NCBI GenBank assembly: GCA_035459785.1
Contig: DATHXF010000083.1
Span: 1 to 64,000 of the forward strand
Direction of reading: 5' to 3'
DNA from: Rariglobus sp.
GTDB taxonomy: Bacteria > Verrucomicrobiota > Verrucomicrobiia > Opitutales > Opitutaceae
Length of the DNA stretch: 64,000 nt
The notes beneath the pieces were generated by a model. The model ran no database searches and was not told the DNA's origin. It saw only the letters and a program-made list of their open reading frames with translations. Position numbers and translations under genes: made by a program. Shown here in pieces: positions 17,663-63,280 of the stretch (positions are counted from its first letter, which is position 1; the number at the start of each line of letters is the position of its first letter).

Positions 17663-17716
17663 GCAATGTAATTTTAAAGTGAATACACCAAGGGACGGAG
17701 GAACCGCCCGCACCTG

Positions 17717-29759: not shown

Positions 29760-29793
29760 CGAGCCCGACTTTCTTGTTCCTCAATCTCCGTTG

Positions 29794-37500: not shown

Positions 37501-37574
37501 GCTGCCTCGTATCCTAACAAGAAGACCGTTATTCCGACATTGCAGAACCGCACGGATGATTGACAGAATCGCAC

Positions 37575-38399
37575 ATGATCAGCGGCGTTAAAAACCTGAT
37601 GTATCTCTCCAAGGGCATGCGCACCTATGGGACGAAGCCCGTGCTGGCGCGGGCCCGTGGTTATTGGGAATTCGAATTCGTCTTCACCGGACGCGCACGT
37701 CCCACGGGGGTTGATTGCCCTCCTCCACCGCTGGAAAAACCACGGCTTTATATTTCCCATCCCAACTCTCCCCACGGATGGACCGATGATGCCGACGGTG
37801 TTTCGGAAATCTTCGTGATCCAGTTCCAATCGGTCCCCGAAGAGCTTGCGGAAATCGTAACACCCGCTGGCCCGCTTCAGATCGAACTTCACGACTCCGA
37901 CCGGCATGGACTGAAATTGCGGCTTCAAGACGCTTGGAATGCTTCATCCGATAAAGACGCCCACGCTTCCCTAAAGCTCCATCAACTCCTGTTCGACATA
38001 GCCGCTTTGGCGATCAGTCGGCTTAAACAAAAAGAGTGGCGGATCGAACCGGCGGATAAAATCAACCGGACGCTCCACTGGTTTGAGGAAAACCTGGGCG
38101 AAAACCCCACGGTGGAAGAGGCCGCCCGCGAAATCGGGGTTTCGACGGCCCATTTGCGGCGGCTATTTTCTGACGCGGGTCGTCCGTCACCAAGGGCGGA
38201 ACTCGCGCGGTTAAAAACCGAGGCCGCGCAACGCTGCTTGTGCGCGGGCTGGACGCAGGAAGCCATCGCTCAATTTCTGGGGTTTAGTGAAGCGAGTTCT
38301 TTTGCACGGGCATTTTATAATGTGTGCGGCCGGTATCCCGGCGAGTGGCTGAAGAAAACCCAATCGAACAAAGGTAAACGTCACACCGGAGCGACGTAG
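37575..38399 (+). CDS. AraC-family transcriptional regulator (cupin sensor + HTH)
   Basis: ORF 37560 (TTG) trimmed to ATG 37575; C-terminal AraC HTH ...IGVSTAHLRRLFSDAGRPSPRAELARLKTEAAQRCL...AIAQFLGFSEASSFARAF.... Divergent from the 36187..37500 operon. Confidence 0.75.
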   Translation: MISGVKNLMYLSKGMRTYGTKPVLARARGYWEFEFVFTGRARPTGVDCPPPPLEKPRLYISHPNSPHGWTDDADGVSEIFVIQFQSVPEELAEIVTPAGPLQIELHDSDRHGLKLRLQDAWNASSDKDAHASLKLHQLLFDIAALAISRLKQKEWRIEPADKINRTLHWFEENLGENPTVEEAAREIGVSTAHLRRLFSDAGRPSPRAELARLKTEAAQRCLCAGWTQEAIAQFLGFSEASSFARAFYNVCGRYPGEWLKKTQSNKGKRHTGAT

Positions 38400-39799
38400 T
38401 TTTTGGGTCCTCCCAGACGCATGAACTGTCCGTGGACGTAGCAGGCGGAAACAAGCGAGAGCACGGCCAGCACGCAGCCGGCGACAAACGTGTAGCGATA
38501 GATATCCCCGGCCCGGTCGATAATGATGCCCATCAACGGGGCCACCGACATCTGAGCCGGCGCGGCGACAATACTGGCGGCCGCATAAAACTGGGCGAAT
38601 TTCGACTGGGGAAACAGTCGGGCCGTCAGCGAAGCGGAGCTGGTATAGTAGCAGCCCGAAAGAACTCCATGCAGGACCCAGGCGATCAGAAAAGTCTGGG
38701 AGGTGGTCGCATAACAGCTCCCCCAGATGGCTACGATCAGGTAGCCCGACATGGTTACGATCACCATGCGGAGAGGATGGAAATAATCCGCCAGCCACCC
38801 GATGAAATACGACAGACAGAGGGAAATGAGATAGGTCAGGGCCAGATACTTCCCGTAGACATCCATGCTCAGACCCAGACTGCGCGCATAAGGAATCGAA
38901 AATACATTGATCGGAACGAAGGCCACAACCGCCGCCATGAGCATGACGAAAATCGACAGATAATACGGTTTCGAAAAACACTCCCGGTAATACATTTTAA
39001 GACCGTCCCAAAAACCCTTCCGCCAGCCTTGGCGCGCCGGGTCCGCTGGAGGAAGCGGCGGGTAGCTTCCTTCTTTCACCTTGAAGCACACCCACGTGAA
39101 GGCCGCTCCGTAAAAAATGCCGACTCCGCCCATGATGAGGGTGAAATGCTCGGGGATTTTACCCGTAAGCCAGAAGTTGAAAATCATCCCGTCGATCAGA
39201 CTGACCGCGCGGAACATTCCATAAAAACGCCCGATCAGTTGCTTCGGCACCACGTCGTTGATCAGTCCGCCAAACACCGCGCCGCTGGCGACGGTCGCCG
39301 CCTCAAAGGCGGCCCAGAACAGTCCGAAGCAGATGACTGAAACCACCATCTCGCTTTCATTCGGGAAAAAACCATGCACCCACCGCGCTATGAACGGAGT
39401 CACCGCCAAACCGATCATGCCGAAGCCGGCCAGCGGAGTCGTCACCAGGAGAAAAGGAATGCGCCGGCCCCATTTGCTGCGATAGCGGTCCGATTTGACA
39501 CTGATGACCGGGCCGAGAATCAGCCCCATGAACGCCGGGAACGTGCTTATGAGCAGCCCAAAGAGAAGATTGGGAACCCCCAAGTGATTCAGATACCAAG
39601 ACGAGGTCGGCCCGATCGAACGGTCTCGCATCGACCAGGCAAAGTCTCCCATCAGCAGCCAGGCAAACAGCACGATCAACCCGCTCGAGGTGTAGGTCAG
39701 CGTGCCTGCCGTCCACGTTTTCTTGGCGGCATCGCGCGATGCCGGAAGATTTGCCGCGGGCTCGGCCACGGACGCATTATTGGTGGGAATAGGTGTCAT
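38381..39799 (-). CDS. MFS transporter, GPH cation symporter family (paralog of 29794..31257)
   Basis: ORF 38381..39946 trimmed to ATG 39797-39799 (MTPIPTNN...); ISVKSDRYRSKWGRRIPF motif; 12 TM. 3' end overlaps the convergent AraC gene by 19 nt. Confidence 0.75.
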   Translation of the reverse strand: MTPIPTNNASVAEPAANLPASRDAAKKTWTAGTLTYTSSGLIVLFAWLLMGDFAWSMRDRSIGPTSSWYLNHLGVPNLLFGLLISTFPAFMGLILGPVISVKSDRYRSKWGRRIPFLLVTTPLAGFGMIGLAVTPFIARWVHGFFPNESEMVVSVICFGLFWAAFEAATVASGAVFGGLINDVVPKQLIGRFYGMFRAVSLIDGMIFNFWLTGKIPEHFTLIMGGVGIFYGAAFTWVCFKVKEGSYPPLPPADPARQGWRKGFWDGLKMYYRECFSKPYYLSIFVMLMAAVVAFVPINVFSIPYARSLGLSMDVYGKYLALTYLISLCLSYFIGWLADYFHPLRMVIVTMSGYLIVAIWGSCYATTSQTFLIAWVLHGVLSGCYYTSSASLTARLFPQSKFAQFYAAASIVAAPAQMSVAPLMGIIIDRAGDIYRYTFVAGCVLAVLSLVSACYVHGQFMRLGGPKNYVAPV

Positions 39800-39803
39800 C
39801 TTC

Positions 39804-40556
39804 TTAACGGGCCGCCGGATCAAAACGCACCGCTGCCGCCAACCGTGGATCGACTCGCGCCAAATCGGTCGCCACCAGACGCGCGATTTCACGTGCCCCG
39901 GCCTCGGTAAAGTGCGTGCGGTCGCCCTTGCCCGGACGATCCGCATTGTCGGCTTGATTCAACGTAAACGCATCCGAGCCCTGTTCACCCAGCCGCTCGT
40001 ATAACGCACCGCTCGTCGCATGCAGATCGATGACCGGCACCGTCAACTCCGCGGCGACAGCCTTCATCGCTTCAACATACGGGGCGAGTTCGGTCGAAAG
40101 CTTCCCGTCCTTGCCGAAGATCCGCCGCCTCACCGGCGTCACGAGCACAGGCACGGCGCCCGCTTCTCTCGCCTCGCGCACAAAGCGCCGCAGGTTTTCC
40201 CGATAATCGGTGGCTGCATCGGTGGACTCGGGCTTTCCCTTGTCGTGGGAATCGTTGTGCCCGAATTGAATCAGAATAAAGTCCGGCTTGGAGGTGAGCA
40301 CCCGCTGCCAGAGATCGCTGGCAAAGGTCTTGGTGCTGCGTCCCGGCTTGGCTTCGTTGATAACAACCACCCCTGGTTGCAAAAACTCCGGCAACAGCTG
40401 TCCCCAGCCCCGCGTGCGCAGGGACTCCTTGTAATTCGACACGGTGGAGTCGCCGATAATGCCGATCTTCAAGGGCGCAGGTGCAACGTTAGCTGTGTCG
40501 GCCAAGGCCATCGACAGCAGACTAAGAGAGGCAAGAAGCAGGATGATTTTTTTCAT
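39804..40556 (-). CDS. SGNH hydrolase, rhamnogalacturonan acetylesterase-like (CE12-like)
   Basis: 250 aa; signal peptide; IGDSTV (block I), GHNDS (block III), DRTHF (block V). Confidence 0.75.
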   Translation of the reverse strand: MKKIILLLASLSLLSMALADTANVAPAPLKIGIIGDSTVSNYKESLRTRGWGQLLPEFLQPGVVVINEAKPGRSTKTFASDLWQRVLTSKPDFILIQFGHNDSHDKGKPESTDAATDYRENLRRFVREAREAGAVPVLVTPVRRRIFGKDGKLSTELAPYVEAMKAVAAELTVPVIDLHATSGALYERLGEQGSDAFTLNQADNADRPGKGDRTHFTEAGAREIARLVATDLARVDPRLAAAVRFDPAAR

Positions 40557-42598
40557 GGAATACTCAGTTCAAAGGGACCGGCCGGAAATCCGGCTCCGTT
40601 GTAGAGATTGCCGTTCGGGTTGCCCGACCAGGCGTAACGCACCGCCGCCGGTGCCTTCACCTGCGGACAGCTGACGATCACCGCTTCGCCCTCGATATGC
40701 GCCTCGGCCCAGAACCACTGGCCGTCCGGGCTGCGGACCGCGAAACCTTCCAGCTGGCTGTCCGGGCTGTTTCTCACCAAGGGCTTGGTCACCCGCTTGG
40801 GACGACTGGCATCCAGATACTCCGCCGGAACCGGACGCGCCTCCAAGCCGCCCGTTGTGTTCGAAAAGCGGATACGAATGGAATTTCCATCCAGAGATTT
40901 TCCGGTGCACACGGGCCCCGAATATTCGCCGTCGCGCCCGTAGTCTTTCACGAGAGCGATGGCCGCCAGACGCTCGCCCGGATCGCGCTTGTTGACGGGG
41001 TGGATGTCCGACGCCTCGCCCACATCGATGATCACCGCCTGTCCGGTGTGCGGCAGCGATAAGGCCTGCGATTGGGCGTCCCGCAGGCCCACCCAACCGT
41101 TGACCGCATCCGGCTTGCTCGTCGTGGAGCCGTAATTGGGCAGCTGACACCAATAGAACGGGAGCTCGGGAGCATTCCAAAGGGAGCGCCAGTCCGTGAT
41201 CAACAGGGGAAAATTGACCCGATAGAGTTCAGGCCTGCTGGTGTTGTGTTCGCCCTGATACCAGATCACCCCGCGAAGGCCGTAGGGTGCCAGTCCGGCG
41301 ATCATTCCGTTGTAAAGCGAAGCGGGCAAATTGCCCGGGCGTAGCGGCGCCTGCAACGCGGCCGGCCGGGCGGTCTGCGCCTCGGACGACAAGGCGGGAA
41401 ACGAGACCTCGGTCTTCAATTTCCATTCTCCTCCCATATACTGAGACCCTGCGGAAAAATAACCGCCGTTGAGCGCCGCGCCCCCCCAAGGCGCGTAGAT
41501 GCGAATCGCCACCGTATGCGACCCGGCGGTCACCTGCGCGGCCGGGATTTTATACTGACGACGCACGCCCTCACGTCCTGCTCCCTCGCCCGGATAGTTG
41601 TCCAGAGTGCGTGCACCCACGGCATGCCCGTCCCAGTAAATCGTTTCGATGCCGACAATCTCGTTGATATCGAGAACCAGTTCACGGCCCACATCGGCGC
41701 CCGCGACGTTCACTTCACGCCTGACCCACTGAATCCCGCTACCGGGAAGCGCGCCCGGCAGACGCACACTGCGCCACTCGGAACCGGACTCGGGAGGGCC
41801 CGCCGCAAACTCGCGCAGTTGGGCGTCTGACGTCGGACGATCTTCGCGCCCGTTGCGCGTGGCCCATGCGGCCATGTCGGCGCGCCACGCGGCCTGCTTG
41901 CTTGGAAAATCCCGACTCTGTGCAAGATCGGCTCTCCCGAGCTCTCCGAGTGCGGGGATGCTTTCGAGCGCCTCAAGCCGGGTCCAAGCCTCGATGGGAG
42001 TTCCTCCAACCGAGGAACTGACAATAGCCACAGGGGTGCCTAATTCTCGACGAAGCTTGCGCGCGAAAAACCACGCGGTGGCGGAAAACGCGGGACTCGT
42101 TTTCGGAGAGGCGATCACCCAGCGCCCATACACGTCGCGCTGCGGCGTCTCGACCGCCTTGTAGGAAACCTGAAAAAAACGAAGCTGGTCGTCGGTCGAT
42201 GCGGCGATCTCATCGGTCAGCTTAAAATCGCCCAACGAACGCTGCATGTTCGATTGTCCGCCGGCCAGCCAGACTTCGCCGACCAGCACATCGGAGATCG
42301 AGCGCGTGTTGTTGCCACGAACATCCATCCGGTGCGGTCCCGCCGCGAGCTTCGTCAGATCCAGCTGCAGCCGCCACTTTCCGTCCGCGTCGGCGGTCGC
42401 CTCTCCGAGCGCTTCGGCCAAGGTGACTTTCACGTGTTCACCGGAGGCAGCCCGGCCCCAAACCGGCGTGCTGGCGGAGCGTTGAAGCACCATGTGATCG
42501 GAAAACACGGGCGGCAACGTGACATCGGAAAACGCGACCGTGGTCGCTCCGCCGAACAGCACCGCCAGGGAACTGAAACGCGCAAACATGGAAATCAA
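40553..42598 (-). CDS. Sialate O-acetylesterase-like (SASA/DUF303) carbohydrate esterase, tandem-domain
   Basis: 681 aa; signal peptide; HMVLQR...PVWG and GEVWLAGGQSNM motifs of the SASA family. ATGA overlap with the downstream CE12 gene. Confidence 0.7.
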   Translation of the reverse strand: MISMFARFSSLAVLFGGATTVAFSDVTLPPVFSDHMVLQRSASTPVWGRAASGEHVKVTLAEALGEATADADGKWRLQLDLTKLAAGPHRMDVRGNNTRSISDVLVGEVWLAGGQSNMQRSLGDFKLTDEIAASTDDQLRFFQVSYKAVETPQRDVYGRWVIASPKTSPAFSATAWFFARKLRRELGTPVAIVSSSVGGTPIEAWTRLEALESIPALGELGRADLAQSRDFPSKQAAWRADMAAWATRNGREDRPTSDAQLREFAAGPPESGSEWRSVRLPGALPGSGIQWVRREVNVAGADVGRELVLDINEIVGIETIYWDGHAVGARTLDNYPGEGAGREGVRRQYKIPAAQVTAGSHTVAIRIYAPWGGAALNGGYFSAGSQYMGGEWKLKTEVSFPALSSEAQTARPAALQAPLRPGNLPASLYNGMIAGLAPYGLRGVIWYQGEHNTSRPELYRVNFPLLITDWRSLWNAPELPFYWCQLPNYGSTTSKPDAVNGWVGLRDAQSQALSLPHTGQAVIIDVGEASDIHPVNKRDPGERLAAIALVKDYGRDGEYSGPVCTGKSLDGNSIRIRFSNTTGGLEARPVPAEYLDASRPKRVTKPLVRNSPDSQLEGFAVRSPDGQWFWAEAHIEGEAVIVSCPQVKAPAAVRYAWSGNPNGNLYNGAGFPAGPFELSIP

Positions 42599-45171
42599 GG
42601 CCTAGGATTGTTAAGCTGCCATTCGAAGATCGAAGGAACCGCAGGCTGCGGGCGCGCCGGCATCGCGGCCCGGCTCGTCGGAATCGGCGAGATCGTGTTG
42701 TCGGAAAGTTTACCGAATCGGCCCTGGTTTCCGGTAAAGCCTGCAAGCTCACGCACAGGACCATAGAAGGCGTTGCCGGTGAGTTCGATGCCGGTGCAAT
42801 CCGACGACTCGAACAACACGACCGGCGAAGCGGGTTTGGTCATGATGAAGACGTTGTTCCGAATCGTGTGATCGAAACTCTTCTCCTTGCCGTAAACCGC
42901 ATACTCGCCATCCAGGCGAAAACGATTGTGCAAGATCAGCCATCCCTCGTTACCACCGACCATGTGGAGGCCGTTCTTCGGGGCGACGATGTCATTGTTG
43001 TAAACGACGTTTCGCGGCCCCTGTGGACCGTGATAAGGACTGCTCGGCCCAGAAGCGTAGAGGCCGTGGCCGTAGCTCCCGTTGGCCATGTCGGCGAGCG
43101 TCTGCTCGATGACATTGTTTTCGAAAAGATTTTCATGCGTCCACCCCGCATGCCACTGGCCGTCGCTGCCGGTGAAGTGACCGTTGCGAATCACATTGCC
43201 GGCAGAGCCCCATTGCACGTCGGGCGCGTGGCGCATGCCCTCCGTGACGGCGCCATCCATGATGCAATCGAACGAGCGCTCAATACCCACGTAACCCGTG
43301 CCGCCACCGCCTTTGAAGAGCGCACCGCGCGCCTCCAGCCCGATGAGTTCGCAGTGCTTCGAGCGGGTGATATAGAGCGGATTACGACCGGCGTTGATCA
43401 CGCCCACGTCCTTCAGCCAGCAACCCCAGCCGTAGCAGATGGTGACGCCGTCGGTCCACAGATCTTCCATCGGATACCAGCCGGTCAGCTCATTTTTAGG
43501 TCCCTTCAACTCGGTGGTGATGACCTTTTGCTCGATCGTGAGTCCTTCGATACCCGAACGCTCCACCACGCCGATGCGCTGCACGTAGGAGCCATCCTCG
43601 AGCGGGAAATCGATGCGAAAAGCTCCATCAACGGTGACGCCTTCTTTGGTCACGGCGGTTACTTTGTAGTGATTTGTCCGGTATATTCCCCAGCTGGTGA
43701 TTTTTCCGGTGAGCTTGTCCCAGCGAGGAGTCGCCGGCGCCTCGATCATGAGACGATCACCCACGGCGAAGCCATGTCCGGGAGCCAGCGCCAGACGGTT
43801 GTCGCCTCGTTGCGCGGTGGCGGTCAGCAAGAACTTTGGACCGGTAATTCCCGGTCCCGAGATCAGCAGCGCGGCGGCTTCGTCGGCCCACGTGTCTCCG
43901 CGTTGGGGCGTGGCGGAGACTTCAACGTCAAACGATTCGGTGAACCGGTCGCCGTTTGCGTAACTTACCTCTGCGTCGATACGGTGCCGACCCGGGCCGA
44001 GTTTTTGCAGCAGCAGCGAGCCCTTCATCCGCAGGTAAAACCGATTGCCCCAGTGCTTGGCGAGACTCTGCTCGGCCATTGTTTTTCCGTCCGAAGTCGC
44101 ACGCAACAAAACCAGATTTTTCGGGTTGGCTTGAATTTCGAAGAAACTGTCCGGGCCAATTTTGCCTGACGGGTTCCAAGACCAGGAGCGCACCGTGCCG
44201 TAGGGGATGTGGTCCGTGTAAAGAAGGTGGGTTTTATTCTTCCCCGCGCCCCGGATCACCACGCCCGAATCCCGAATGACAATCGAATGACCAAGCAGGA
44301 ATCGACCGGCCGGCAGCTCAACGACTCCGCCTCCTTTGGCGGCAGTCTTTTCCACGGATCGCTGCAGGAGATCCGCGATGTCGCGACCTTCTTGACCGGC
44401 GAAGACTTCCTTGCCGACAACCACGGGCAGTGACCCCGCAGCCGGTATACCTCCGGGCACGCCGGCGTGACGCCAGTTTGGATATACCAAGCCGTCGGGA
44501 CCGACCACGTCGGACGCGGTCAATCGCGCCCGCTCGTCCGCCTGGGTCAGATCGAATTTGTAGGTCGGTTGCCAAGGAGGAGTCATGCCGGGCAAAAACG
44601 CCTCGACCTCCAGATCGTCGAGATCGGCGACGACCTTGGAGCCGTCGAACGAATGGATACGCACATCGAACGTCGCGGCCCCTTCGGACGGAACGGCGGT
44701 CACGGTGTATTGCCGCCAAAGCTGACTCTCGACCGTCTGCTGGTCGCTGTATTTAGGCGAAGGATTCAGCTGCTTTCCGTTCGCGCCGAAAAAGCGCAGA
44801 TACACCGCGATGCCCTTCCCCGATACGCACCGGGCCCAGAGTGAAACGCGATAGGCACGACCAGACTCGACCGCCAACGGCTCCGTGTGCACCGAGGATC
44901 CTGCATGCGTCGAGTCATCGACAACGCGCAACCCGCGTCCTCCCGTATGAGCCGCCTCCGACATCACCCGGCTCATCGGCGCCGATTCGTCTGCCACCCA
45001 TCCCGCCAAACCGGTTTCGAAGCCGGGATTGGCGAAGGTGAGCGGTTTGACGGCCGTCTCCGCCGCGCCCGCATGCGCAACGCCGACGGCGAGCATGGAC
45101 AGCAAGGTCCAACGCGCGGCGCAGCGGAACACCACAGGCAACAGAGAAGATGTCGGACAATCGGAGATCAT
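42595..45171 (-). CDS. Secreted pectin-lyase-fold (right-handed beta-helix) protein with N-terminal CBM4/9-like module; glycosidase/lyase of unassigned family
   Basis: 858 aa; N-terminal FANPGFETGLAGWV... CBM-like module; beta-helix region shares ...HAGWTHENLFENNVIEQT...GSYGHGLYASGPSSPYHGPQGPRNVVYNNDI...HNRF... with the next gene; PxPAVPSIFEWQ C-terminal motif. Confidence 0.6.
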   Translation of the reverse strand: MISDCPTSSLLPVVFRCAARWTLLSMLAVGVAHAGAAETAVKPLTFANPGFETGLAGWVADESAPMSRVMSEAAHTGGRGLRVVDDSTHAGSSVHTEPLAVESGRAYRVSLWARCVSGKGIAVYLRFFGANGKQLNPSPKYSDQQTVESQLWRQYTVTAVPSEGAATFDVRIHSFDGSKVVADLDDLEVEAFLPGMTPPWQPTYKFDLTQADERARLTASDVVGPDGLVYPNWRHAGVPGGIPAAGSLPVVVGKEVFAGQEGRDIADLLQRSVEKTAAKGGGVVELPAGRFLLGHSIVIRDSGVVIRGAGKNKTHLLYTDHIPYGTVRSWSWNPSGKIGPDSFFEIQANPKNLVLLRATSDGKTMAEQSLAKHWGNRFYLRMKGSLLLQKLGPGRHRIDAEVSYANGDRFTESFDVEVSATPQRGDTWADEAAALLISGPGITGPKFLLTATAQRGDNRLALAPGHGFAVGDRLMIEAPATPRWDKLTGKITSWGIYRTNHYKVTAVTKEGVTVDGAFRIDFPLEDGSYVQRIGVVERSGIEGLTIEQKVITTELKGPKNELTGWYPMEDLWTDGVTICYGWGCWLKDVGVINAGRNPLYITRSKHCELIGLEARGALFKGGGGTGYVGIERSFDCIMDGAVTEGMRHAPDVQWGSAGNVIRNGHFTGSDGQWHAGWTHENLFENNVIEQTLADMANGSYGHGLYASGPSSPYHGPQGPRNVVYNNDIVAPKNGLHMVGGNEGWLILHNRFRLDGEYAVYGKEKSFDHTIRNNVFIMTKPASPVVLFESSDCTGIELTGNAFYGPVRELAGFTGNQGRFGKLSDNTISPIPTSRAAMPARPQPAVPSIFEWQLNNPRP

Positions 45172-45199
45172 AGGCGGGCGGATTTAAGAACACGTTTCA

Positions 45200-48100
45200 T
45201 CAAGGAAGGATCGTGCTGAACTTAAGGTCATCCAAGTCGGCGGTGACGATGCTGGTGCTGAAGGAGTGGATACGGACATATGCATACGCCGCGTTGACCG
45301 GCGCCACGAAGGTGCCGCTGCGCGAGGTCCACGACGTGTCCGTGGACTGAAGGTTAACGAGGTTGGTTCCAGAGATGGAGTTTTGGTTGGCGTCCAAAAA
45401 AACCAGATACACGCCGATGCCGCTGCCAGAGATGACCCGATCCCAGAAGGAAACGGTGTAGCTGACACCGGGCAGCACGAGAAACGTCTGCGACTGCAAG
45501 CTGGAGCTCAGCGTAGTCGAGTTATCGATCACTCGAACGCCGTAGGTGCCGGTGTGCGCAGCGGAGGTGGTGACTGCGCTCATGCCGTTGTCTCCGGTGT
45601 TGCTCCAACCGGTGATGTTACCCGACTCGAACCCTGCGTTCGGCTGGGGGAAAGCAGGATTGCGCTGCCAATCAAAAATGGACGGCACGGACGGCACCGG
45701 CCTGGGCGGCAAATCCAGGACAACGATGTTGTCGAGATGCGCCTCCACTGCGGCTCCTGTGTAGGAATGAATGCGGATGTTGGCCTTGGCCGTGCCGGCG
45801 GGCGCAACCGCACGAAGCGTGAATTGCTTCATGGCACCATCGGGAGGCGGTGTGACGTTCTCGGCAGGATAAAGGCTGGGCTCGGATGGCAGATCCAGCG
45901 TCTGGCTCGCGATCAGAGCGGACGACGCATCGTAGAAATTAAGATCAATGCCGATCCCGCTTCCCGAAAGGGTCTTCGCGTCACAACGGATCTGATAGGT
46001 ATCCCCCGGCGTGGCGTTGAACTGCTGGGACGCCAGCGACGAAGTGCCGCCCGAGCCGGTGGAAAGAACCTTGAGGACATGATTGGTCGCAAAACCGGTC
46101 AGCGCATTCGCGATGATGGTGCTCTGTCCGCTGTCGCCGGTCGCATCCCAACCCACCCACTGGCCGCCCTCGAAGCCGGCGTCAAAAGCGAGGGCGCTGA
46201 ACGCGAGATAACCCACTTCACCGAATTCGAAATCATCGAACTGGGACACGGAAGTCGCCCCGCTGTAGCTGTGCACATAGATTCGCGCATAGGCTGCTCC
46301 CACCGGCGCAGCGTATTGGACCATGTCCGGCTGCCAGGTGGACGCCTCCGCCACATCCGTCTGCGCACCCGACAACAAGACATAGCTGGAATTATAGAAC
46401 CGCAGATAAACACTCATGCCCTTGCCCGTGTTCGTATAGAAAAAACGTGTGGCATAGACATGGCCCGGCGAAACGGGAAGGTAAGCCGAGTAAAGCGAGG
46501 AGCCGGCGGTTGTGCTGCTATCGGTGACCTTGAGACAATTGCTGCCGAGATGCGGACTCGTGGTTACGACCACGCTCATGCCGCCATCGCCCGTGTTAAC
46601 CCAGCCCGTCAGGTTGCCGGACTCAAAACCGCTGTTCGCGAACGCTTGGGGGATGAGGTGATCCGTGGCGATATTTCCGGCGAGGAACGCGGAAGAACTG
46701 CCGGCGAGAAACGCGGTAGACGGATTAAAAACACCATCAAAGTCACTGTCGGTAAAATCGCTTCCGGTCGAAGCGGTATCGGACAGATTAATCGCGGAGG
46801 CGGAAGATTGCAGGACGGCGATGTTGTTATGGAAAACGTGACCGCTGCTGCCCGCTTTCGCGTAGAAGAGTTCTCCCGAATCAACCGCGAAACGATTGTG
46901 GACGAAGATCCAGTCCTTGTTCGACCCTCCCAGCCACGTTCCAAGTTCAGGTGAAGAAATGTCGCAGTTATAAACCACGTTACGCGGACCATTGGGTCCG
47001 TGTTGAACATCATTCGGAGCGGATGAAAAAAGCCCGTTGCCGTAGGACCCGTTGCCCAGATTGGCGATGATGGTGTTGTTCTCGAACAAATTTTCATTCG
47101 TCCAGCCCGCATGCCAGTGCGCTTCTGAATCGATGAAGGTGCTGTTGCGAATGACGTTTCCGGCGGCGGAATTCTGGACCAGCGGACCGTGCCGGAGCTT
47201 GGTCGTGACCACATTGTCCATCAGACAGTCGAAGGCCATTTCGAAGCCGCAGTAGGCCGTGCCGCCGCCGCCATGAGCCCAGGCGTCGTTAAAGGTGGAG
47301 TCCTCGATCTGGCACCACTTCGCGTCGGTCAGATAAACCGGATGACGCCCCGCCTTGTTGACGGTGACGTTTTGTATCCAGGATTTCCATGCGTAGGAAA
47401 ACTGAATGCCGCAGGTCCAGAGGTTGTTCGTCTGGGTCAGCACAAGGTCCTCGACACCGCAGTTCTGGAGCACACCCAGTTTCTTGATGAACGGAGCGGG
47501 ATTGGTTCCCTCGATCGGATAATCGATGCGCAAGGGCTGGTTCAACGTGATCGTGGTGCCGCTGATTCCGGTGATCTTATACTGATAGTAGCGGAAGATA
47601 TTGCTCGTGCAGAGATTTCCCACCTGCGCATCCCAGATGGCGTTGCGCGGCGCGCTGAGGACAATGGGGTCTCCGGTGGCGAATCCGCTGCTGCTCGTCA
47701 TTTGAAGCGTCGTGGCACCCCGGACGGCGGAGGCGGTGATCCTCGTGCCGCTCGTAGTTAACTCGCCTTTTCCGACGAAGTTGATCGCCGCCAGATAATT
47801 GGGCCGCGGGAACGCGTTGGCATCGGTGCTGTTCACGATGTTGTAGGTCCGCGCAGTCGTATAAATGGTGCTGGTGACCGTCATCACTTTCGTCACCGGA
47901 TCCCAGGTTCCGTATTTGGCGCAGCCCACCACAATTTTTGAGCCGGTGCCCACGACGCCGCGAACTTTGGAACCGATGCAGGCCCTCGAAAATGTGCTGC
48001 CCCAACCACCGTTGGAGCTCTTCACGTCGACCCCGTCCACCTTGGTCAAACTTGCGTTCGGCGTGCCGGGAGCGCCCGCCAGAATATCGATGCCCACCAA

Positions 48101-48595
48101 CCCCACGGGATCGGCGTGGAACTCAACCCAGGTGTTGTTGTAGAGCGAGCTGGCGGCGGCGTCGGGCTGATAAAACGCAATGGTTCCCGCGGGCGCCTGA
48201 TAGGTGAAGTTAAGAAAAGTTCCGCCGACGCCGTTGCCCGCGCCGCGCAAAACGATCCCGTCTTTTCCGATCAGAACCGGACGCGTCAGACTGTAGGTTC
48301 CTGACGGCAGCGCGATGACACCCGGGACTGTGGCGCTCGCCACGGCGCTTTCAATCGCACCCGCCAAATCGCTTGTCGCCTGTCCGCTGGTGATGGTGGC
48401 GAGAACGTTGGTCACGTTGGGGATGCCGCCGGGCACGCCCGCCTGCCTGAAATCAGGATAATACAAACCATCCGGGCCGGGAATATCCACGCCGGCCACC
48501 TGTGCATGCGCGAAGCCGGCCAGCGTAAAGAGCGAAAACAAAAGTCCGTTCTTTAGACGGCCGATGATAACTTGGGGGGATTGGGGTATTTTCAT
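45200..48595 (-). CDS. Secreted pectin-lyase-fold protein (paralog of 42595..45171) with three C-terminal CBM4/9-like modules
   Basis: 1131 aa; signal peptide; beta-helix N-half (HAGWTNENLFENNTII...GSYGNGLFSSAPNDVQHGPNGPRNVVYNCDI...HNRF); three tandem modules starting FANSGFESGNLTGW, FDAGFEGGQWVGW, PNAGFESGNITGW. Confidence 0.6.
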   Translation of the reverse strand: MKIPQSPQVIIGRLKNGLLFSLFTLAGFAHAQVAGVDIPGPDGLYYPDFRQAGVPGGIPNVTNVLATITSGQATSDLAGAIESAVASATVPGVIALPSGTYSLTRPVLIGKDGIVLRGAGNGVGGTFLNFTYQAPAGTIAFYQPDAAASSLYNNTWVEFHADPVGLVGIDILAGAPGTPNASLTKVDGVDVKSSNGGWGSTFSRACIGSKVRGVVGTGSKIVVGCAKYGTWDPVTKVMTVTSTIYTTARTYNIVNSTDANAFPRPNYLAAINFVGKGELTTSGTRITASAVRGATTLQMTSSSGFATGDPIVLSAPRNAIWDAQVGNLCTSNIFRYYQYKITGISGTTITLNQPLRIDYPIEGTNPAPFIKKLGVLQNCGVEDLVLTQTNNLWTCGIQFSYAWKSWIQNVTVNKAGRHPVYLTDAKWCQIEDSTFNDAWAHGGGGTAYCGFEMAFDCLMDNVVTTKLRHGPLVQNSAAGNVIRNSTFIDSEAHWHAGWTNENLFENNTIIANLGNGSYGNGLFSSAPNDVQHGPNGPRNVVYNCDISSPELGTWLGGSNKDWIFVHNRFAVDSGELFYAKAGSSGHVFHNNIAVLQSSASAINLSDTASTGSDFTDSDFDGVFNPSTAFLAGSSSAFLAGNIATDHLIPQAFANSGFESGNLTGWVNTGDGGMSVVVTTSPHLGSNCLKVTDSSTTAGSSLYSAYLPVSPGHVYATRFFYTNTGKGMSVYLRFYNSSYVLLSGAQTDVAEASTWQPDMVQYAAPVGAAYARIYVHSYSGATSVSQFDDFEFGEVGYLAFSALAFDAGFEGGQWVGWDATGDSGQSTIIANALTGFATNHVLKVLSTGSGGTSSLASQQFNATPGDTYQIRCDAKTLSGSGIGIDLNFYDASSALIASQTLDLPSEPSLYPAENVTPPPDGAMKQFTLRAVAPAGTAKANIRIHSYTGAAVEAHLDNIVVLDLPPRPVPSVPSIFDWQRNPAFPQPNAGFESGNITGWSNTGDNGMSAVTTSAAHTGTYGVRVIDNSTTLSSSLQSQTFLVLPGVSYTVSFWDRVISGSGIGVYLVFLDANQNSISGTNLVNLQSTDTSWTSRSGTFVAPVNAAYAYVRIHSFSTSIVTADLDDLKFSTILP

Positions 48596-48629
48596 GGGGT
48601 TGAAAGCGGTGAGGTCGCTCGACGGTTTT

Positions 48630-49379
48630 TTATTGGGATGCGTCGGGTTGCTTGGGCGGCATGGGCACGTCGTTGACGACCACGGTGCGCAAATTCCTGA
48701 ACTCTTTTGAATCGGGGAAAACGAAGAGGAGCATGCGGGCGCTCGCGGGCTTGGGCAGGCCGGTCCGCATCTTCAGCTCCCAATCGCCGCCCGGCGGACG
48801 GCAGGCGATTTTTATCGGAAGAAACTCGCGCCCGGCTCCGATCACAAAATCGGCGCGCTGGTTTATCTCCACCACCTCCTGAACATCCGCCAACTTCACG
48901 CCCAGCGCGGCCGGGCAAAAATTGTAGAGTCGCACACTGTTCTCCGACATATCCTCGCCCCAATATTCGATGGGCGTGAAGCGGTATGGAAACGAACGCT
49001 GGCTTTTGTCGTGGGTGACCAAAAAGAGGACGCCGCGCCAGGAGGCGGGAAACTCAAGCTTGGCCAGAGGGCGGCTCTCCGTTTTCCCTTCGACCACCAC
49101 GCTGCGAAACAAGGTGATCACGCCAGGGCCGCGATACTCGATGGTGTCGGACAAGCCGCCCGGCACGATCGTCAGATCGTGGACCACCTTGCCGCTGGCA
49201 AGTTTGGCGATCATGTCGGGTTCGGTCGTCTCGTTTCCGCGGATGTAGGCAAACCTCACCATCACGGGCGGCGGTTGCTTGGGCTCCGCCGGCAACGTGG
49301 TTTGGGCGCGAAGCGGCCCGGACCACCCCAAGGCGCCCAGCAAAAACAGGGAGATCAAATATCGGAGGAGCTGAGCCAT
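48630..49379 (-). CDS. Secreted ~250-aa partner protein of giant copy 2 (start lies 25 nt inside the 3' end of the giant gene)
   Basis: ATG at 49377-49379; MAQLLRYLISLFLLGALGWSGPLRAQ signal peptide. Same size, position and strand relationship as 28974..29759. Confidence 0.5.
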   Translation of the reverse strand: MAQLLRYLISLFLLGALGWSGPLRAQTTLPAEPKQPPPVMVRFAYIRGNETTEPDMIAKLASGKVVHDLTIVPGGLSDTIEYRGPGVITLFRSVVVEGKTESRPLAKLEFPASWRGVLFLVTHDKSQRSFPYRFTPIEYWGEDMSENSVRLYNFCPAALGVKLADVQEVVEINQRADFVIGAGREFLPIKIACRPPGGDWELKMRTGLPKPASARMLLFVFPDSKEFRNLRTVVVNDVPMPPKQPDASQ

Positions 49380-53218: not shown

Positions 53219-53501
53219 GCAATTAAGCGCGCGCCAGCAGCAAGCACTGCGGGGAGAAATCTTCAGCAACAGTCATCGCAAAAGCAGAAGCGGATGCGGT
53301 GTTCATTGATACGCAGCGGCGAAAGCGGGTCAGTGGAGACGGGGTCCGGCGCACGGCGCAGGTGGGCAATACAGAGAGCATGGGAAGCCTGAACAGGCGG
53401 AGGTCACGGACCTTCTCGTCTGCCGCAGAAAATAAGGTTTATCGGAGACGCTTTTGCGGAGCACTAAATCAACGTGTGCTCCGAAAAGCGACGTATGGGG
53501 A

Positions 53502-54671
53502 TCAGGTTGAGATGCGGCGGCGATAGGCCGCGAAACCTAGAATCATCATGCCAGCGAAAGCGGCATAGGTGGAGGGCTCGGGGACGGCTGCGAACGTTAC
53601 GAAACCGCTGGCATCAAGCGAAGCCGTGTAGCCCGCCAACGAGATCGAATTCAATTGAGCAAGCGTGAGTGCCGAGATGGACGAACCGAACTTCAACGTA
53701 TCAGTGCCGATGTCGAAATTTAGCAACGTCAGCGTGCCGCTCCATGCAATGGAATGACTGTCGGCAAATACCAGCGCGGAGGTCAACGAACCCATGTCGA
53801 TGGTTGAGTTGGCCGAGAGCGTGAGGGTGCCCAGAGTCTCGTTAAAGCCGCCCGTGGCGAAAGTGCCGCCCGCCATGACCAGATTACTGGTGTTGGCGAT
53901 GCGATCTGCCGCGCCCAGAGCCAGCGTTCCATCCGAAACCGTCGTCGTGCCCGTGTAGGTGTTGTTCCCGGAAAGCGTCCACAAGCCGGTTCCGCTCTTG
54001 GCCAGACTCAACGTATTGCCGGTTCCATTGGAGATGACCCCGCGCACTAGACTGGAAAAGGAGCTGTTATTGTTTGTCCCATCCAACGTAAGTGTAAGCC
54101 CCCCCGTGCCACTGACACCAGAAATGGCCGTTGTTGTGCCTGTATTAAAAGCGCTGGCGCTGAGGTTGGTGCTATTATTCGTCCACGTCTGGCTGGCAGA
54201 AAGCTGCATCGAACTAAGGCTCGATGCCGTAAGCAATCGCCCCGTGCCGCCGACTGCCATACCGCCTGCGCCAATCGTCAGCACAGGTGTAGAAGCCCCC
54301 GACAAAGTCACGGAACCTTCCTCAATCGTGATGCTATTCGCAGAAATGGAACCGGTGACCACTACCGCCGAGCTACCGGTCACGTCGGTGGAAGCAGAAA
54401 AAAACGCATCAGAGCCTCCAACATAAGTGGTGTTGGAGCCAGAACCGTCGGAATTAACGTTCCAACTGGCCGTTGATGCGTCCCAATTTCCAGGAGCGTT
54501 TGTAGAGGTGCTTCCTCCGATGTTTCCGTCATCGATATCCCAATAAAGCGAAGCTGCTTGAGCGGAAGGAATGGCAACCGCGCCGAACATGGCGGCGAAG
54601 GCAATCGCCACCAGCTTGGGGAACGGGCGGTTTGTTTGGTTGGAGGCGGAGATGAGGGTATGGGGTGTCAT
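53502..54671 (-). CDS. PEP-CTERM-anchored surface protein with beta-strand repeats
   Basis: 389 aa; signal peptide; C-terminus AAVPEPSTYAAFAGMMILGFAAYRRRIST (PEP-CTERM). Confidence 0.7.
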   Translation of the reverse strand: MTPHTLISASNQTNRPFPKLVAIAFAAMFGAVAIPSAQAASLYWDIDDGNIGGSTSTNAPGNWDASTASWNVNSDGSGSNTTYVGGSDAFFSASTDVTGSSAVVVTGSISANSITIEEGSVTLSGASTPVLTIGAGGMAVGGTGRLLTASSLSSMQLSASQTWTNNSTNLSASAFNTGTTTAISGVSGTGGLTLTLDGTNNNSSFSSLVRGVISNGTGNTLSLAKSGTGLWTLSGNNTYTGTTTVSDGTLALGAADRIANTSNLVMAGGTFATGGFNETLGTLTLSANSTIDMGSLTSALVFADSHSIAWSGTLTLLNFDIGTDTLKFGSSISALTLAQLNSISLAGYTASLDASGFVTFAAVPEPSTYAAFAGMMILGFAAYRRRIST

Positions 54672-54773
54672 AATAAGAGGGCTTTATCGTGAATAATTAC
54701 GGGCAGATTGGTGATTCAGAAAGAGAGAGGACTCGCAGGTGCGGCCCACGTGCAGGAGGATTATTTGAGCATC

Positions 54774-55673
54774 CTACGAGGTATCGGCCCGGCGGATTGC
54801 CTCGAGCTCGGCCTGATTAAGAACGGCCTCCGAACTGGCTGCATCGGCCCAAATGCGGATATTATCAATCACGCCGTCGAACGGCCGGTCTCCGGCCGGC
54901 ATATTTCCAATGATCACGGGAACATCCGGCAAAACGGTCTTGAGCGCTCCCGCAGCTAGAGAGGCTTCCGTGACGACTTGAACCGGCCCGTTTACGGAGC
55001 CGGCGTAAAAAACGACATTTTTATATTCTCCCGCGCCGTCATACGTGATCGCAAAAAAGACCCACTGATCAGCCACACGAAAAACAGGGCTCGGACTAAG
55101 TGCAGACCCCCGATCAGTCGAGAGAACCAACCCCTTTCCGTCCGGACCGTCAAAGACCACCGACAGTCTCTGGCTGCTGATCAATCGGGCATAGTTGGAA
55201 GGGATTTGAACTCCATCCGACTTATACCAGCCCTGCACCGTAAATGACATTGCCCGGTCAAAGCTGGTTGCGCCCCCGCTGATGACGGCTTTGCCACCTT
55301 GGCCAGGCGTCTTACCCGACCCGCCCATTGCCAGGGAGACCGTATTATCAAATGCCCGATCCTTCGGTTTGTGCGATACCCCACCCCCCGGCGCCGTGCG
55401 CAAGTCAGCTTTTGCGCCATCGAATATCGTCATCAATGCAGGTGGATTCTTGGCTGCTGAATCCTTCACTACTTCGCCAGGGGCATCATTGAACCTCAGC
55501 TCAAGCACCAGTTCGCTTCTATGGGGAAGATCACTGGCCCGCCCCTCTGTTCCCGCCAAGCAAACCAACGCAAGCCATCCACCAACAAGCGGGCCGCATG
55601 CAGCTACAACCAAGCGAGGCACGGCAAAACCGCCAAACTTGGAAGCATAAGAAAGTATACAATCTTGGGGCAT
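54774..55673 (-). CDS. Secreted concanavalin/LamG-like domain protein
   Basis: ORF 54774..55730 trimmed to ATG 55671-73; TM/signal then beta-sandwich with C-terminal FDGVIDNIRIW (LamG-type D-x-[IV]-R-I-[WY] motif). Tentative. Confidence 0.45.
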   Translation of the reverse strand: MPQDCILSYASKFGGFAVPRLVVAACGPLVGGWLALVCLAGTEGRASDLPHRSELVLELRFNDAPGEVVKDSAAKNPPALMTIFDGAKADLRTAPGGGVSHKPKDRAFDNTVSLAMGGSGKTPGQGGKAVISGGATSFDRAMSFTVQGWYKSDGVQIPSNYARLISSQRLSVVFDGPDGKGLVLSTDRGSALSPSPVFRVADQWVFFAITYDGAGEYKNVVFYAGSVNGPVQVVTEASLAAGALKTVLPDVPVIIGNMPAGDRPFDGVIDNIRIWADAASSEAVLNQAELEAIRRADTS

Positions 55674-55743
55674 GGAATGAGGGGGGCGGCTCCTCGGGGA
55701 AGCAGCCCCCGAGCAGCGGAAATGTCTCATCCTGCCTGATAGA

Positions 55744-55775
55744 TTACGTTAATAAGTCAATACATCTAACGTTAA
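55744..55775. promoter_or_regulatory. Two AACGTT-core palindromic half/full sites (TTACGTTAAT, TAACGTTAA) in the divergent LacI / minus-strand-operon promoter region; candidate LacI-family operators
   Basis: Read in sequence at 55744-55753 and 55767-55775 within an AT-rich 200-bp intergenic region. Confidence 0.35.
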
Positions 55776-55901
55776 AATTCATTCAATTTCAGCAACCAGT
55801 AATCACCCTCCGCCTAAAATCCACGCGTGCTCCCCGCTGGTAACTCACCACCAAATCAATTGATCAACGAGTTACGCATGCAGCCAAACTTTGCGATTGA
55901 A

Positions 55902-55911
55902 TTAACGTTAA
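55902..55911. promoter_or_regulatory. Perfect palindrome TTAACGTTAA 20 bp upstream of the LacI gene start (candidate autoregulatory operator)
   Basis: Read in sequence at 55902-55911; CG-centred palindromes are typical LacI-family operators. Confidence 0.4.
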
Positions 55912-55930
55912 TTTTTAAGTTCATGACAGA

Positions 55931-57342: not shown

Positions 57343-57418
<76 letters not shown>

Positions 57419-60282: not shown

Positions 60283-60293
60283 GCGAACACGGA

Positions 60294-60308
60294 TTGATCA
60301 GTGATCAA
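60294..60308. promoter_or_regulatory. 15-bp perfect palindrome TTGATCAgTGATCAA 12 bp upstream of the LacI start in the divergent LacI/(alpha/alpha)6-protein promoter region; candidate operator
   Basis: Read in sequence at 60294-60308. Confidence 0.35.
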
Positions 60309-60354
60309 CAGTTTAGCAAGGCAATCATTGTTCGGACCGGCGAACGCTGGCTCG

Positions 60355-63230: not shown

Positions 63231-63238
63231 TTTATCCG

Positions 63239-63280
63239 CAGCCGCGGCGTGATTGTCACGCCGCGGCTACTCGGTTTTTC
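63239..63280 (+). terminator. Rho-independent terminator candidate: 13-14-bp perfect stem (CAGCCGCGGCGTGA / TCACGCCGCGGCTG) with 3-nt loop, followed by TCGGTTTTTCTT
   Basis: Read in sequence 9 bp after the TAA stop (63228-63230) of the SGNH gene. Confidence 0.55.

Follow-up and report, generated by a model that had tools for sequence, protein, structure and literature searches.

Why should a gene for a giant pilin-like protein lie among genes for carbohydrate esterases, carbohydrate-binding proteins and a sugar-type transporter? The question is raised by the second of three giant genes in a 64,000-nucleotide stretch of a Rariglobus sp. contig (the window). An initial annotation had described an 11-gene operon controlled from a divergent LacI promoter, and had taken the giant protein to act in glycan capture at the cell surface rather than in classical secretion. 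The observation was partly confirmed and the interpretation partly supported, as described below; the features are collected in Table 1.

Table 1. Features of the giant copy 2 run, its control region and the other giant genes of the window
Feature	Position	Strand	Basis or remark
Exported 351-aa protein upstream of copy 1	24328-25383		Precedes giant copy 1
Giant copy 1, 1,174 aa	25460..28984	+	Paralogue of copy 2
Partner of copy 1	28974..29759	+	11-nt overlap with giant copy 1 end
MFS paralogue after copy 1	29791..31257	+	30% identity to MFS of copy 2 operon
MFS sugar-type symporter	38381..39799	-	MFS_1 73 bits; MFS_2 36.7 bits vs gathering score 27
Exported SGNH/GDSL esterase, 250 aa	39804..40556	-	Lipase_GDSL_2 79 bits, signal peptide
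Exported SASA-type carbohydrate esterase, 681 aa	40553..42598	-	PF03629 54.6 bits, signal peptide
Exported CBM_4_9 + beta-helix protein, 858 aa	42595..45171	-	Pfam, signal peptide
Exported beta-helix protein with two CBM_4_9 modules, 1,131 aa	45200..48595	-	Pfam, signal peptide
Partner, 249 aa	48630..49379	-	Sec signal peptide, two beta-sandwich domains
Giant copy 2, 1,287 aa	49355..53218	-	GspK-type pseudopilin N-terminus
Spacer, 283 bp, 57% GC	53219..53501	-	Between PEP-CTERM gene and giant
Stem-loop, 15 pairs, one bulge	53447..53492	-	About 10 nt past PEP-CTERM stop; no adjacent U-tract
PEP-CTERM-anchored protein, PATR repeat, signal peptide	53502..54671	-	PATR 38.9 bits; TIGR02595 19.6 bits vs cutoff 16
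LamG-like protein, N-terminal signal or anchor	54774..55673	-	Laminin_G_3, 44 bits (Pfam)
Divergent control region, 257 bp, 46% GC	55674..55930		Three T[AT]ACGTTAA operator-like sites
LacI-family regulator, divergent from run	55931..56932	+	LacI HTH PF00356 37 bits; Peripla_BP_3 PF13377 80 bits
Giant copy 3, cut by window end	63311..64000	+	Full length 1,179 aa on source contig

The run extends without a break on the minus strand from 55673 (or 55730) to 38381, as first described, and contains nine genes rather than 11; the earlier gene list itself counts nine, and the sole candidate for an additional gene is an unsupported 52-codon ORF (53223-53381) in the spacer before the giant gene. Read 5' to 3', the products are a LamG protein, a PEP-CTERM/PATR protein, the giant, its partner, two beta-helix/CBM4_9 proteins, SASA and SGNH/GDSL esterases and an MFS protein, an order on which the Pfam and NCBIfam identities agree with the initial annotation, and the run is closed by a convergent AraC gene (37560-38399, plus strand). 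The 283-bp spacer is exact, and the claim that all other gaps are at most 100 bp fails at the LamG/PEP-CTERM junction (102 bp). The giant and partner genes overlap by 25 nt, 34 bp separate the partner from the first beta-helix gene and 28 bp the two beta-helix genes, the second beta-helix gene/SASA and SASA/SGNH junctions are 4-nt overlaps, and the SGNH/MFS junction is about 4 bp when the MFS start is taken as the ATG at 39799 (its longest ORF begins at 39946).

A signal peptide is present on each of the operon's four enzymes. The LamG gene has an alternative start at 55730 that yields 318 aa; in public gene calls its length is either 299 or 318 aa. The PEP-CTERM protein reaches the TIGR02595 cutoff and ends in VPEPSTY...RRR, with the PEP motif, TM helix and basic tail (VPEPSTYAAFAGMMILGFAAYRRR). 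For the SGNH esterase, labelled CE12 in the initial annotation, the Pfam hits were all of the SGNH/GDSL type, and the pectin acetylesterase PaeY model was matched partially, at 57.9 bits, far below the cutoff of 1000. The GPH label given earlier to the symporter stands on its MFS_2 score, although MFS_1 is the stronger match; against solved structures it gave weak SLC45A4 matches and no others. No SusC-like TonB-dependent transporter or SusD-like protein was matched by Pfam or NCBIfam among the nine proteins. Beyond the run, CAZyme genes make an island of the window from roughly 5 kb up to its right-hand end.

The pilin-like character of the giant, proposed in the initial annotation, was borne out at the N-terminus and appears to extend to the core. 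The N-terminus reads RRG followed by FALLITVTLLAFLVLLLVSL, with Gly at -1, a hydrophobic alpha1 and no Glu at +5; among 67 homologues, G-1 and F+1 are at least 90% conserved and Glu is likewise missing at +5. GspK itself also lacks Glu5. About 60 N-terminal residues are shared with the NF037980 and TIGR02600 models: residues 18-83 align with positions 2-67 of the former (N-terminus only, 21.6 bits vs a cutoff of 130), and positions 1-63 only of the latter are matched (34.5 bits vs 332.3). Copy 2 had no Pfam match, T2SSK domains included, and a profile search of PDB sequences found nothing. The best structural matches, with the fold evidence drawn from paralogue copy 1, were GspK/XcpX (PDB 3ci0_K, 5vtm_X), with which the giant appears to share a long alpha1 helix and a pilin core split by the insertion of a domain that has helix-hairpin-helix-like elements; about 1,000 residues form a fold without a match. 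No lectin or CBM domain was recognisable (none by Pfam, nothing significant by Foldseek against the PDB). The N- and C-terminal regions are conserved, and the middle (about residues 360-880) is variable. Taken together, these features suggest that the giant is a pilin-like protein built on a GspK tip-pilin core.

The giants nevertheless differ from GspK and XcpX in being about four times larger (1,170-1,290 vs about 300 aa), in scoring below the curated NF037980 cutoff, in having many paralogues per genome, in being paired with a non-pilin beta-sandwich protein, and in lying mostly away from T2SS genes, within CAZyme operons; gsp or GspH/I/J-like neighbours were found only in loci L056 and L078. 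The 64-kb window contains no pseudopilin or T2SS genes besides the giants. Another candidate was Verru_Chthon cassette protein A (TIGR02600), one of the four proteins, A to D, of a gene cassette defined in TIGRFAMs. It resembles the giants in phylum, length and the first 60 or so residues, and UniRef gives its name to some homologues. However, six of eight family members, copy 1 included, scored 21-37 bits against the cutoff of 332, with N-terminal matches only, and two did not match. Copy 2 is flanked by LamG/PEP-CTERM genes upstream and a non-pilin partner downstream, and a D-B-C-giant order occurs in L056 only, with weak matches. The score of copy 2 and the absence of B, C and D genes from the window tell against this assignment. 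To our knowledge, the cassette as defined includes no such additional partner gene, and we found no use of the cassette name in the literature searched.

At least 580 giant/partner loci were found in total, and the counts given here cover subsets of 61-80 loci, depending on the count. The pairing itself is a constant feature: a partner-sized ORF follows the giant in 75 of 79 loci, 67 of these 75 belonging to one family. The partner ATG in copy 2 lies 25 nt inside the giant 3' end, at conserved K-W codons, and such overlaps occur in about a third of loci. One further match, PepT-like, is to a generic beta-sandwich pair.

The surroundings also recur. Each of the three giant copies from this genome belongs to a CAZyme operon, and in two cases a divergent LacI gene stands at the operon's head; on the source contig, a 268-aa partner and a 1,025-aa PATR protein come after copy 3. 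The five Pfam-labelled loci from other genomes (L001, L081, L085, L086, L087) are likewise all CAZyme clusters and carry LacI, AraC or ROK regulators, so the reported association of the giant with carbohydrate esterases, binding modules and a sugar-type MFS extends beyond this operon. Across 77 loci, the commonest neighbour clusters by raw count were PEP-CTERM, LacI, GH16, GH5, GH29 and heparinase-like proteins.

How far the run is transcribed as one unit depends on its two non-coding regions. The LacI-LamG intergenic region is poorer in GC than its flanks (46% vs about 60%). Sites of the TAACGTTAA or T[AT]ACGTTAA type occur at 55744-55752, 55767-55775 and 55903-55911 and are absent from the rest of the window; the last lies within a 14-bp palindrome with a central CG, AATTAACGTTAATT (55900-55913), 17 nt 5' of the lacI ATG, to which the other two sites are half-related. 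With one mismatch permitted, TTAACGTTAA matches three times across the window, twice within this region, and none of 100 shuffles gave three matches in the operator-like site search. These observations agree with the AT-rich, palindromic region first described. An identical LacI protein is present on five public contigs. The LacI-type HTH and periplasmic-binding-protein fold, together with the central-CG palindrome, make the region a candidate LacI operator region, where LacI may repress the divergent promoter of the LamG and PEP-CTERM genes.

The spacer before the giant contains neither a LacI-type palindrome nor an Rfam match. It does contain a strong hairpin (dG -24 kcal/mol, z -4.1; none of 200 shuffles equally stable) with no adjacent U-tract. 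This hairpin may act as a weak terminator, as an attenuator or in RNA stability. Downstream, every junction from giant to MFS is at most 34 bp, and these seven genes almost certainly form a single unit. Whether the promoter opposite lacI drives all nine genes from LamG to MFS, with the hairpin as a stabiliser or partial pause, appears nearly balanced. Such a transcript is favoured by the shared strand of all nine genes, by the operator-like palindromes that precede the LamG ATG by 71-102 nt, by LamG or PATR genes that lie 5' of the giant in L085 and in 15 of 77 loci, and by the spacer itself, in which no consensus sigma-70 promoter was found and whose hairpin, unlike the clear terminators of the same genome (such as those following 22196-24139 and preceding giant 3), has no U-tract. 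It is opposed by the 283-bp gap, which far exceeds the other junctions, by the strength of the hairpin, by the canonical terminator-like hairpin upstream of giant 3, and by the 35 of 64 related loci in which the giant opens its same-strand run. From these features, the chance that a transcript from the LacI promoter continues past the hairpin into the giant gene seems about even. The earlier proposal of LacI control is thus supported for the divergent lacI and its operator-like sites, and is not supported for control of the whole run, since the sites lie only between LacI and LamG, and the hairpin and the related loci argue against it.

What the giant does in this setting can be given a tentative answer, which we hold at somewhat below an even chance: copy 2 may be an operon-specific GspK-type tip pseudopilin that, with its partner, captures glycan at the cell surface. 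The filament would be of the type II secretion type, its machinery encoded elsewhere, with copy 2 as a minor (tip) pseudopilin and the partner as an exported two-beta-sandwich protein translationally coupled to it. The conserved terminal parts would form the pilin core docking on shared GspH/I/J-like subunits, and substrate specificity would come from the variable middle and the partner; the variability of the middle fits a specificity set locus by locus. Most likely, the tip would bind the target glycan at the surface and present it to the exported enzymes, the MFS protein would import the degradation products, and the seven-gene unit as a whole would thereby degrade and import one acetylated glycan. 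Weighing against this reading are the missing lectin or CBM domain, the scores below the GspK and TIGR02600 cutoffs, the lack of pseudopilin or T2SS genes in the window, the small number of loci (4 of 80) with a canonical prepilin gene no more than 10 kb away, the 16 of 64 giant/partner pairs that stand alone, and the housekeeping genes beside some pairs.

The dismissal of classical secretion in the initial annotation was not justified. In L078, a giant homologue lies directly 5' of gspG (111 bits, above cutoff), gspH, gspI and gspK, with gspE and gspF nearby, and in L056 giant and partner lie downstream of GspH/I/J-like pseudopilins (cassette D/B/C-like, weak matches). These two loci make a T2SS role a live rival, and the gene link would fit secretion as readily as capture. 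Giant and partner would then be an operon-specific pseudopilus tip or adaptor that selects the operon's own large exported enzymes within the periplasm and propels them out via the secretin, with paralogues widening the cargo of a single T2SS. Pseudopilins at the T2SS tip make contact with substrates, and pullulanase, cellulases and pectinases are among the proteins that T2SSs export; the apparent GspK-like core fits such a role, as do the Sec signal peptides on all the operon enzymes, which must cross the outer membrane to meet a polymer. We nonetheless judge it somewhat less likely than capture. We know of no cargo-specific GspK paralogue, one adaptor would have to suit four unrelated enzyme folds, 16 of 64 giant/partner pairs have no same-strand neighbours, L078 retains an ordinary GspK, and the diversity per locus points more to substrate-binding components than to secretion parts.

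If the N-terminal helix were only a signal anchor, with no filament, giant and periplasmic partner might instead form an inner-membrane scaffold that binds oligosaccharides and feeds the transporter, or senses them. This is improbable: G-1 and F+1 hardly vary across the family, which is what a prepilin-peptidase site would require, the missing Glu5 is shared with GspK, L056 and L078 tie the family to pseudopilin genes, the PepT-like match is generic, and no more than 2 of the 77 other loci have an MFS homologue. Least probable is a coincidental neighbourhood, in which the pairs would serve adhesion or biofilm formation on their own and would lie near CAZymes only through the CAZyme density of these genomes and of the 64-kb island. 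Neighbours are indeed very diverse (582 clusters from 889 proteins), and some pairs adjoin housekeeping genes (hisG, gyrA, rpsL). Against this stand the short distances (0-34 bp) that separate the pair from the enzyme genes downstream, the presence in 46 of 61 loci of a same-strand gene after the partner (median gap 43 bp), the CAZyme setting of every labelled foreign locus and of all three copies here, and an operon gene order kept in relatives (L083, L084) at partner identities of 73% and 93%.

A glycan-binding filament tip, as tentatively preferred here, has parallels in other bacteria. In Streptococcus sanguinis, a lectin-bearing minor-pilin tip complex (PilA-PilC) binds glycans (PMC9934059); it belongs to the type IV pilus of a monoderm, has a defined lectin module and is present once per genome, whereas the giants lack a recognisable lectin domain and are set in catabolic operons. 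Pili-like fibres of Planctomycetes bind dextran (PMC5394234). In the Opitutales isolate Verruconatronum alginivorum, a PulG-like pseudopilin is encoded inside an alginate-induced gene cluster, and a pseudopilin gene is among those over-expressed on alginate (PMC13274419). Type IV filament-type genes in a polysaccharide cluster and massive paralogy (67 copies) are common ground (PMC13274419), but those proteins are small PulG-like major-type pseudopilins, whereas the giants are GspK-like and have a partner. The run also resembles a Bacteroidota PUL in its co-localised exported CAZymes, local sugar regulator, transporter and locus-specific variable non-enzymatic pair, and the giant/partner pair recurs between loci like SusC/D. 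It differs in lacking a TonB-dependent transporter and SusD, in uptake by MFS (ABC elsewhere) and in a marker pair that is pilin-derived. The recurrence of giant and partner beside polysaccharide genes in many Verrucomicrobiota genomes suggests an undescribed filament-tip module for glycan use.

The run that carries the second copy of the giant, a GspK-type pseudopilin-like protein, consists of nine minus-strand genes rather than the 11 counted in the initial annotation, whose gene labels agree with the Pfam and NCBIfam identities (see the table). Going from LamG to MFS, gaps of 102 and 283 bp are followed by an overlap of 25 nt at the giant/partner junction, gaps of 34 and 28 bp, two overlaps of 4 nt each and a last gap of about 4 bp, and the end of the run is closed by a convergent AraC gene. 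At the other end, a divergent LacI gene (55931-56932) is separated from the run by 257 bp with 46% GC, and the AT-rich, palindrome-bearing region described there earlier was borne out: three T[AT]ACGTTAA sites were found, at 55744, 55767 and 55903, the last within AATTAACGTTAATT, 17 nt ahead of the lacI ATG. With up to one mismatch, TTAACGTTAA has three matches in the window, two of them in this intergenic region, and three matches were reached in 0 of 100 shuffles. In GCA_041287535.1, a second public contig with an identical LacI protein, adh_short and ABM genes occupy the side on which our contig has tRNA-Met, and this side may therefore be a strain-level rearrangement point.

Features of the copy-2 run and other elements of the window
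Feature	Coordinates	Strand	Basis or remark
LamG-like, Laminin_G_3	54774-55673 (or 55730)	-	Pfam, NCBIfam
PEP-CTERM protein with PATR repeat	53502-54671	-	Pfam, NCBIfam
Giant copy 2, 1,287 aa	49355-53218	-	no Pfam match
Partner of copy 2, 249 aa	48630-49379	-	no Pfam match
Start-in-tail overlap, partner/giant copy 2	49355-49379	-	[RK]-W codons
Beta_helix + CBM_4_9 protein	45200-48595	-	Pfam
CBM_4_9 + Beta_helix protein	42595-45171	-	Pfam
SASA esterase	40553-42598	-	Pfam
GDSL/SGNH esterase	39804-40556	-	Pfam
MFS transporter	38381-39799	-	Pfam
Terminator-like hairpin, perfect 13-pair GC then GGUUUUUCUU	63236-63280	+	dG -32 kcal/mol, z -4.6
c-di-AMP riboswitch RF00379	4735-4906	-	Rfam, 58 bits vs gathering score 38
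tRNA-Met (CAT)	57343-57418	-	between LacI and fn3 protein

Because the junctions from the giant to MFS are so tight, co-transcription of these seven genes is very likely, and read-through from the LacI-side promoter into giant copy 2 is about as probable as its absence. The spacer ahead of the giant (53219-53501) has 57% GC and is not AT-rich; it contains no LacI-type palindrome with up to one mismatch, no known RNA element matching Rfam at E<=1 and no consensus promoter. About 10 nt past the PEP-CTERM stop, it harbors a 15-pair hairpin (dG -24 kcal/mol, z -4.1). Clear terminators of this genome, such as those after the GH16 gene and ahead of copy 3, carry U-tracts and the spacer hairpin does not; it could thus act as a weak terminator, an attenuator or a stabiliser. 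A consensus promoter/terminator scan of the run, which missed this hairpin because of its 11-nt loop and missing U-tract, returned sites no commoner than in shuffled sequence and, within the intergenic gaps, sites at the MFS end only. The GGUUUUUCUU hairpin falls in the 80 bp that separate a GDSL gene from giant copy 3 and has the look of a canonical terminator placed immediately ahead of a giant gene. Hairpins were rejected as a general feature ahead of giants: z was below -2.5 in 6 of 25 such gaps versus 7 of 60 other same-strand gaps, numbers too small to establish an enrichment. The regions ahead of the window's three giants yielded no common motif. Much of the copy-2 spacer is filled by a 52-codon ORF (53223-53381, minus strand) ending 5 nt before the giant's ATG, a candidate only, which could encode a leader peptide. 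Among related loci, the giant is the first gene of its own same-strand run in 35 of 64, and solitary pairs of giant and partner, with no same-strand neighbors, account for 16 of 64; the partner is followed by a same-strand gene in 46 of 61, at a median gap of 43 bp.

The N-terminus of copy 2, RRG/FALLITVTLLAFLVLLLVSL...TRVETQVA, fits the first ~60 positions of NF037980 (GspK) and TIGR02600 (Verru_Chthon cassette protein A), scoring 21.6 bits against a cutoff of 130 and 34.5 bits against a cutoff of 332, respectively. Six of eight other family members score only 21-37 bits with TIGR02600, and two have no match. Since the scores are about one tenth of the cutoffs and come from the N-terminus only, membership of the giant in either curated family was ruled out. 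G-1 and F+1 are nearly invariant among 67 giant homologues, which have no Glu at +5, a residue also missing in GspK. The protein is conserved at residues ~1-360 (N-terminal) and ~880-1287 (C-terminal), on either side of a variable middle. No matching solved structure was found for the giant by sequence or by Foldseek, the structure model being that of copy 1.

A word-indexed search with the giant yielded 914 matches, mostly from Opitutaceae and Rariglobus and several per genome, and an exhaustive profile search returned 5,449 representatives (50%-identity clusters) at E<=1e-3 and 3,407 at E<=1e-30. In species-representative genomes, at least 580 confirmed stretches span Opitutaceae, Akkermansiaceae, Verrucomicrobiaceae, Cerasicoccus, Ruficoccus and Thalassobacterium; among the best 80 of them, several MAGs contribute five to seven loci each. 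The window itself holds three copies: copy 1 at 25460-28984, copy 2, and copy 3, which begins at 63311 (plus strand), runs past the window end and shares 42% identity with copy 2 over 229 aa. The full-length copy 3 on the source contig (L091, 10849-18446) has 1,179 aa, and behind it come a partner of 268 aa and a PATR protein of 1,025 aa. With the GH94 and GDSL genes upstream and a divergent LacI gene (59191-60282), the arrangement completed past the window reads LacI / GH94, GDSL, giant, partner, PATR. The short LacI-GH94 gap contains a perfect palindrome, TTGATCAGTGATCAA (60290-60310, plus strand), which differs from the copy-2 palindrome and may serve the third LacI paralogue as its own operator.

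The partner is a small two-beta-sandwich protein. A same-strand ORF, mostly of 230-300 aa, directly follows the giant in 75 of 79 loci, and one divergent family comprises 67 of those 75 ORFs and both window partners. The partner starts within the giant's 3' end in about a third of the loci; in 12 of 67, as in copy 2, the conserved [RK]-W codons contain the partner's start codon, 24 nt ahead of the point where the stop codon ends, so that the conserved tail and the coupled start share one stretch of DNA.

The neighbors of the giant loci are very diverse (889 proteins in 582 clusters). The largest recurring clusters are PEP-CTERM/PATR proteins and LacI, at 15 loci each, and other large ones comprise further PEP-CTERM proteins, GH16, SDR, FAD_oxidored, GH29, heparinase-like proteins and GH5. 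CAZyme-type Pfam domains occur in at least 17 of 68 genes just upstream of the giant and at least 12 of 73 just downstream of the partner, both lower bounds tallied from top-25 family lists. All five Pfam-labelled loci of other genomes are CAZyme clusters, encoding LacI and two GH5 proteins (L001), an XylR/AraC-type regulator, GH43 and GH97 (L081), LamG and CBM9 (L085), GH18, GH20 and ROK (L086), or GH1, GH16, GH5 and an ABC binding protein (L087). The order of giant, partner and beta-helix/CBM genes is kept only among close relatives, whose partners are 73% and 93% identical. Conserved synteny with L002, whose giant (44% identity) is the closest homologue among the genomes of the collection, was rejected, as the pair there is flanked by opposite-strand genes. 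HisG is also among the recurring neighbors: in four loci (L028, L034, L038 and L043) hisG lies directly upstream of the giant on the opposite strand, a conserved housekeeping neighborhood that misfits the CAZyme pattern. Giant loci 1 and 2 each have an MFS gene (29791-31257, plus strand, for locus 1), and the two are paralogous over their full length (30% identity, E 1e-63); a general giant-MFS association was rejected, with MFS homologues near the giant in only 2 of 77 other loci.

The window, a CAZyme island, encodes three LacI regulators and one of the AraC type. A PEP-CTERM/PATR protein (15245-16528) heads a second minus-strand CAZyme run, within 7638-17713, with GDSL, a 989-aa GH16 protein, a 792-aa unknown protein and GH30; a LacI gene (16640-17713) lies just upstream of the PATR gene, and the "PATR first" layout recurs here without a giant. 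An SPFH/Band-7 ORF (2693-4810) has the riboswitch at its 5' end.

No prepilin-type genes were found throughout the window, and only 4 of 80 loci have them within 10 kb of the giant. In L056, three small genes with weak N-terminal matches to GspH/I/J and cassette D/B/C precede the giant and partner. In L078 (Opitutaceae MAG, 3465-15208), a giant-family gene with no partner gene in the locus lies directly upstream of gspG (111 bits, above the cutoff), gspH, gspI, an unassigned gene (296 aa) and then a gspK of the ordinary kind; gspF and gspE are convergent to these genes. Through the gene content of these two loci, the giant family is tied to type II secretion-type filaments.

We tentatively favor the reading that the giant would be an operon-specific tip pseudopilin, the variable middle of which, with the partner, would bind the target glycan of its locus, because locus-by-locus diversity is expected of substrate-binding parts and because surface LamG and PEP-CTERM/PATR proteins accompany the pair. 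Precedents support such a tip: glycans are bound by a minor-pilin tip complex with a lectin module in Streptococcus sanguinis (PMC9934059), dextran is bound by Planctomycete fibres (PMC5394234), and in an Opitutales isolate an alginate-induced cluster contains a PulG-like pseudopilin gene, and the genes over-expressed on alginate include one for a pseudopilin (PMC13274419). The main rival, which we hold to be possible but doubtful, is that the giant and partner form a cargo adaptor for secretion of the operon's enzymes, each of which has a signal peptide. Since the link to type II secretion supports this adaptor as much as capture, the initial annotation's preference for glycan capture "rather than" secretion was unjustified. 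Less likely are a membrane-anchored periplasmic scaffold, which we judge improbable, and a coincidental neighborhood of giants and CAZymes, which seems very improbable. A speculative and rather unlikely model takes the pair as the Verrucomicrobiota equivalent of a PUL marker pair, with a family of thousands of substrate-specific tips fitting one shared T2SS-type filament; as a retractable "fishing rod", this filament would catch a particular polysaccharide and hand it over to the enzymes and transporter of the same locus.

The type IV filament minor pilin, the LacI-controlled catabolic operon and the PEP-CTERM protein are all known kinds. The giant GspK-derived family, its obligate partner and their systematic placement in CAZyme operons appear to be undescribed in the literature searched, which contained no paper with "Verru_Chthon" or linking GspK-like proteins to glycan use by Verrucomicrobiota. 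Verrucomicrobiota play a major part in the breakdown of complex glycans in soil, in water and in the gut; to our knowledge, they are without the SusC/SusD systems around which polysaccharide use in Bacteroidota is organised, and their polymer binding and uptake are, as far as we know, poorly understood. The giant family, large and unannotated, recurs with its fixed partner in CAZyme operons and offers a concrete candidate, open to testing, for the capture or export component that these bacteria would need, and the pair would be a practical marker of utilisation loci in Verrucomicrobiota. If true, the "fishing rod" model would explain polymer capture by these SusC/D-less bacteria and perhaps also the dextran-binding fibres of their PVC relatives. 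With the giant family, the type IV filament superfamily would gain a catabolic, locus-specific role. Should the role turn out to be cargo-specific secretion, GspK paralogues dedicated to single operons would still be a novelty in type II secretion.
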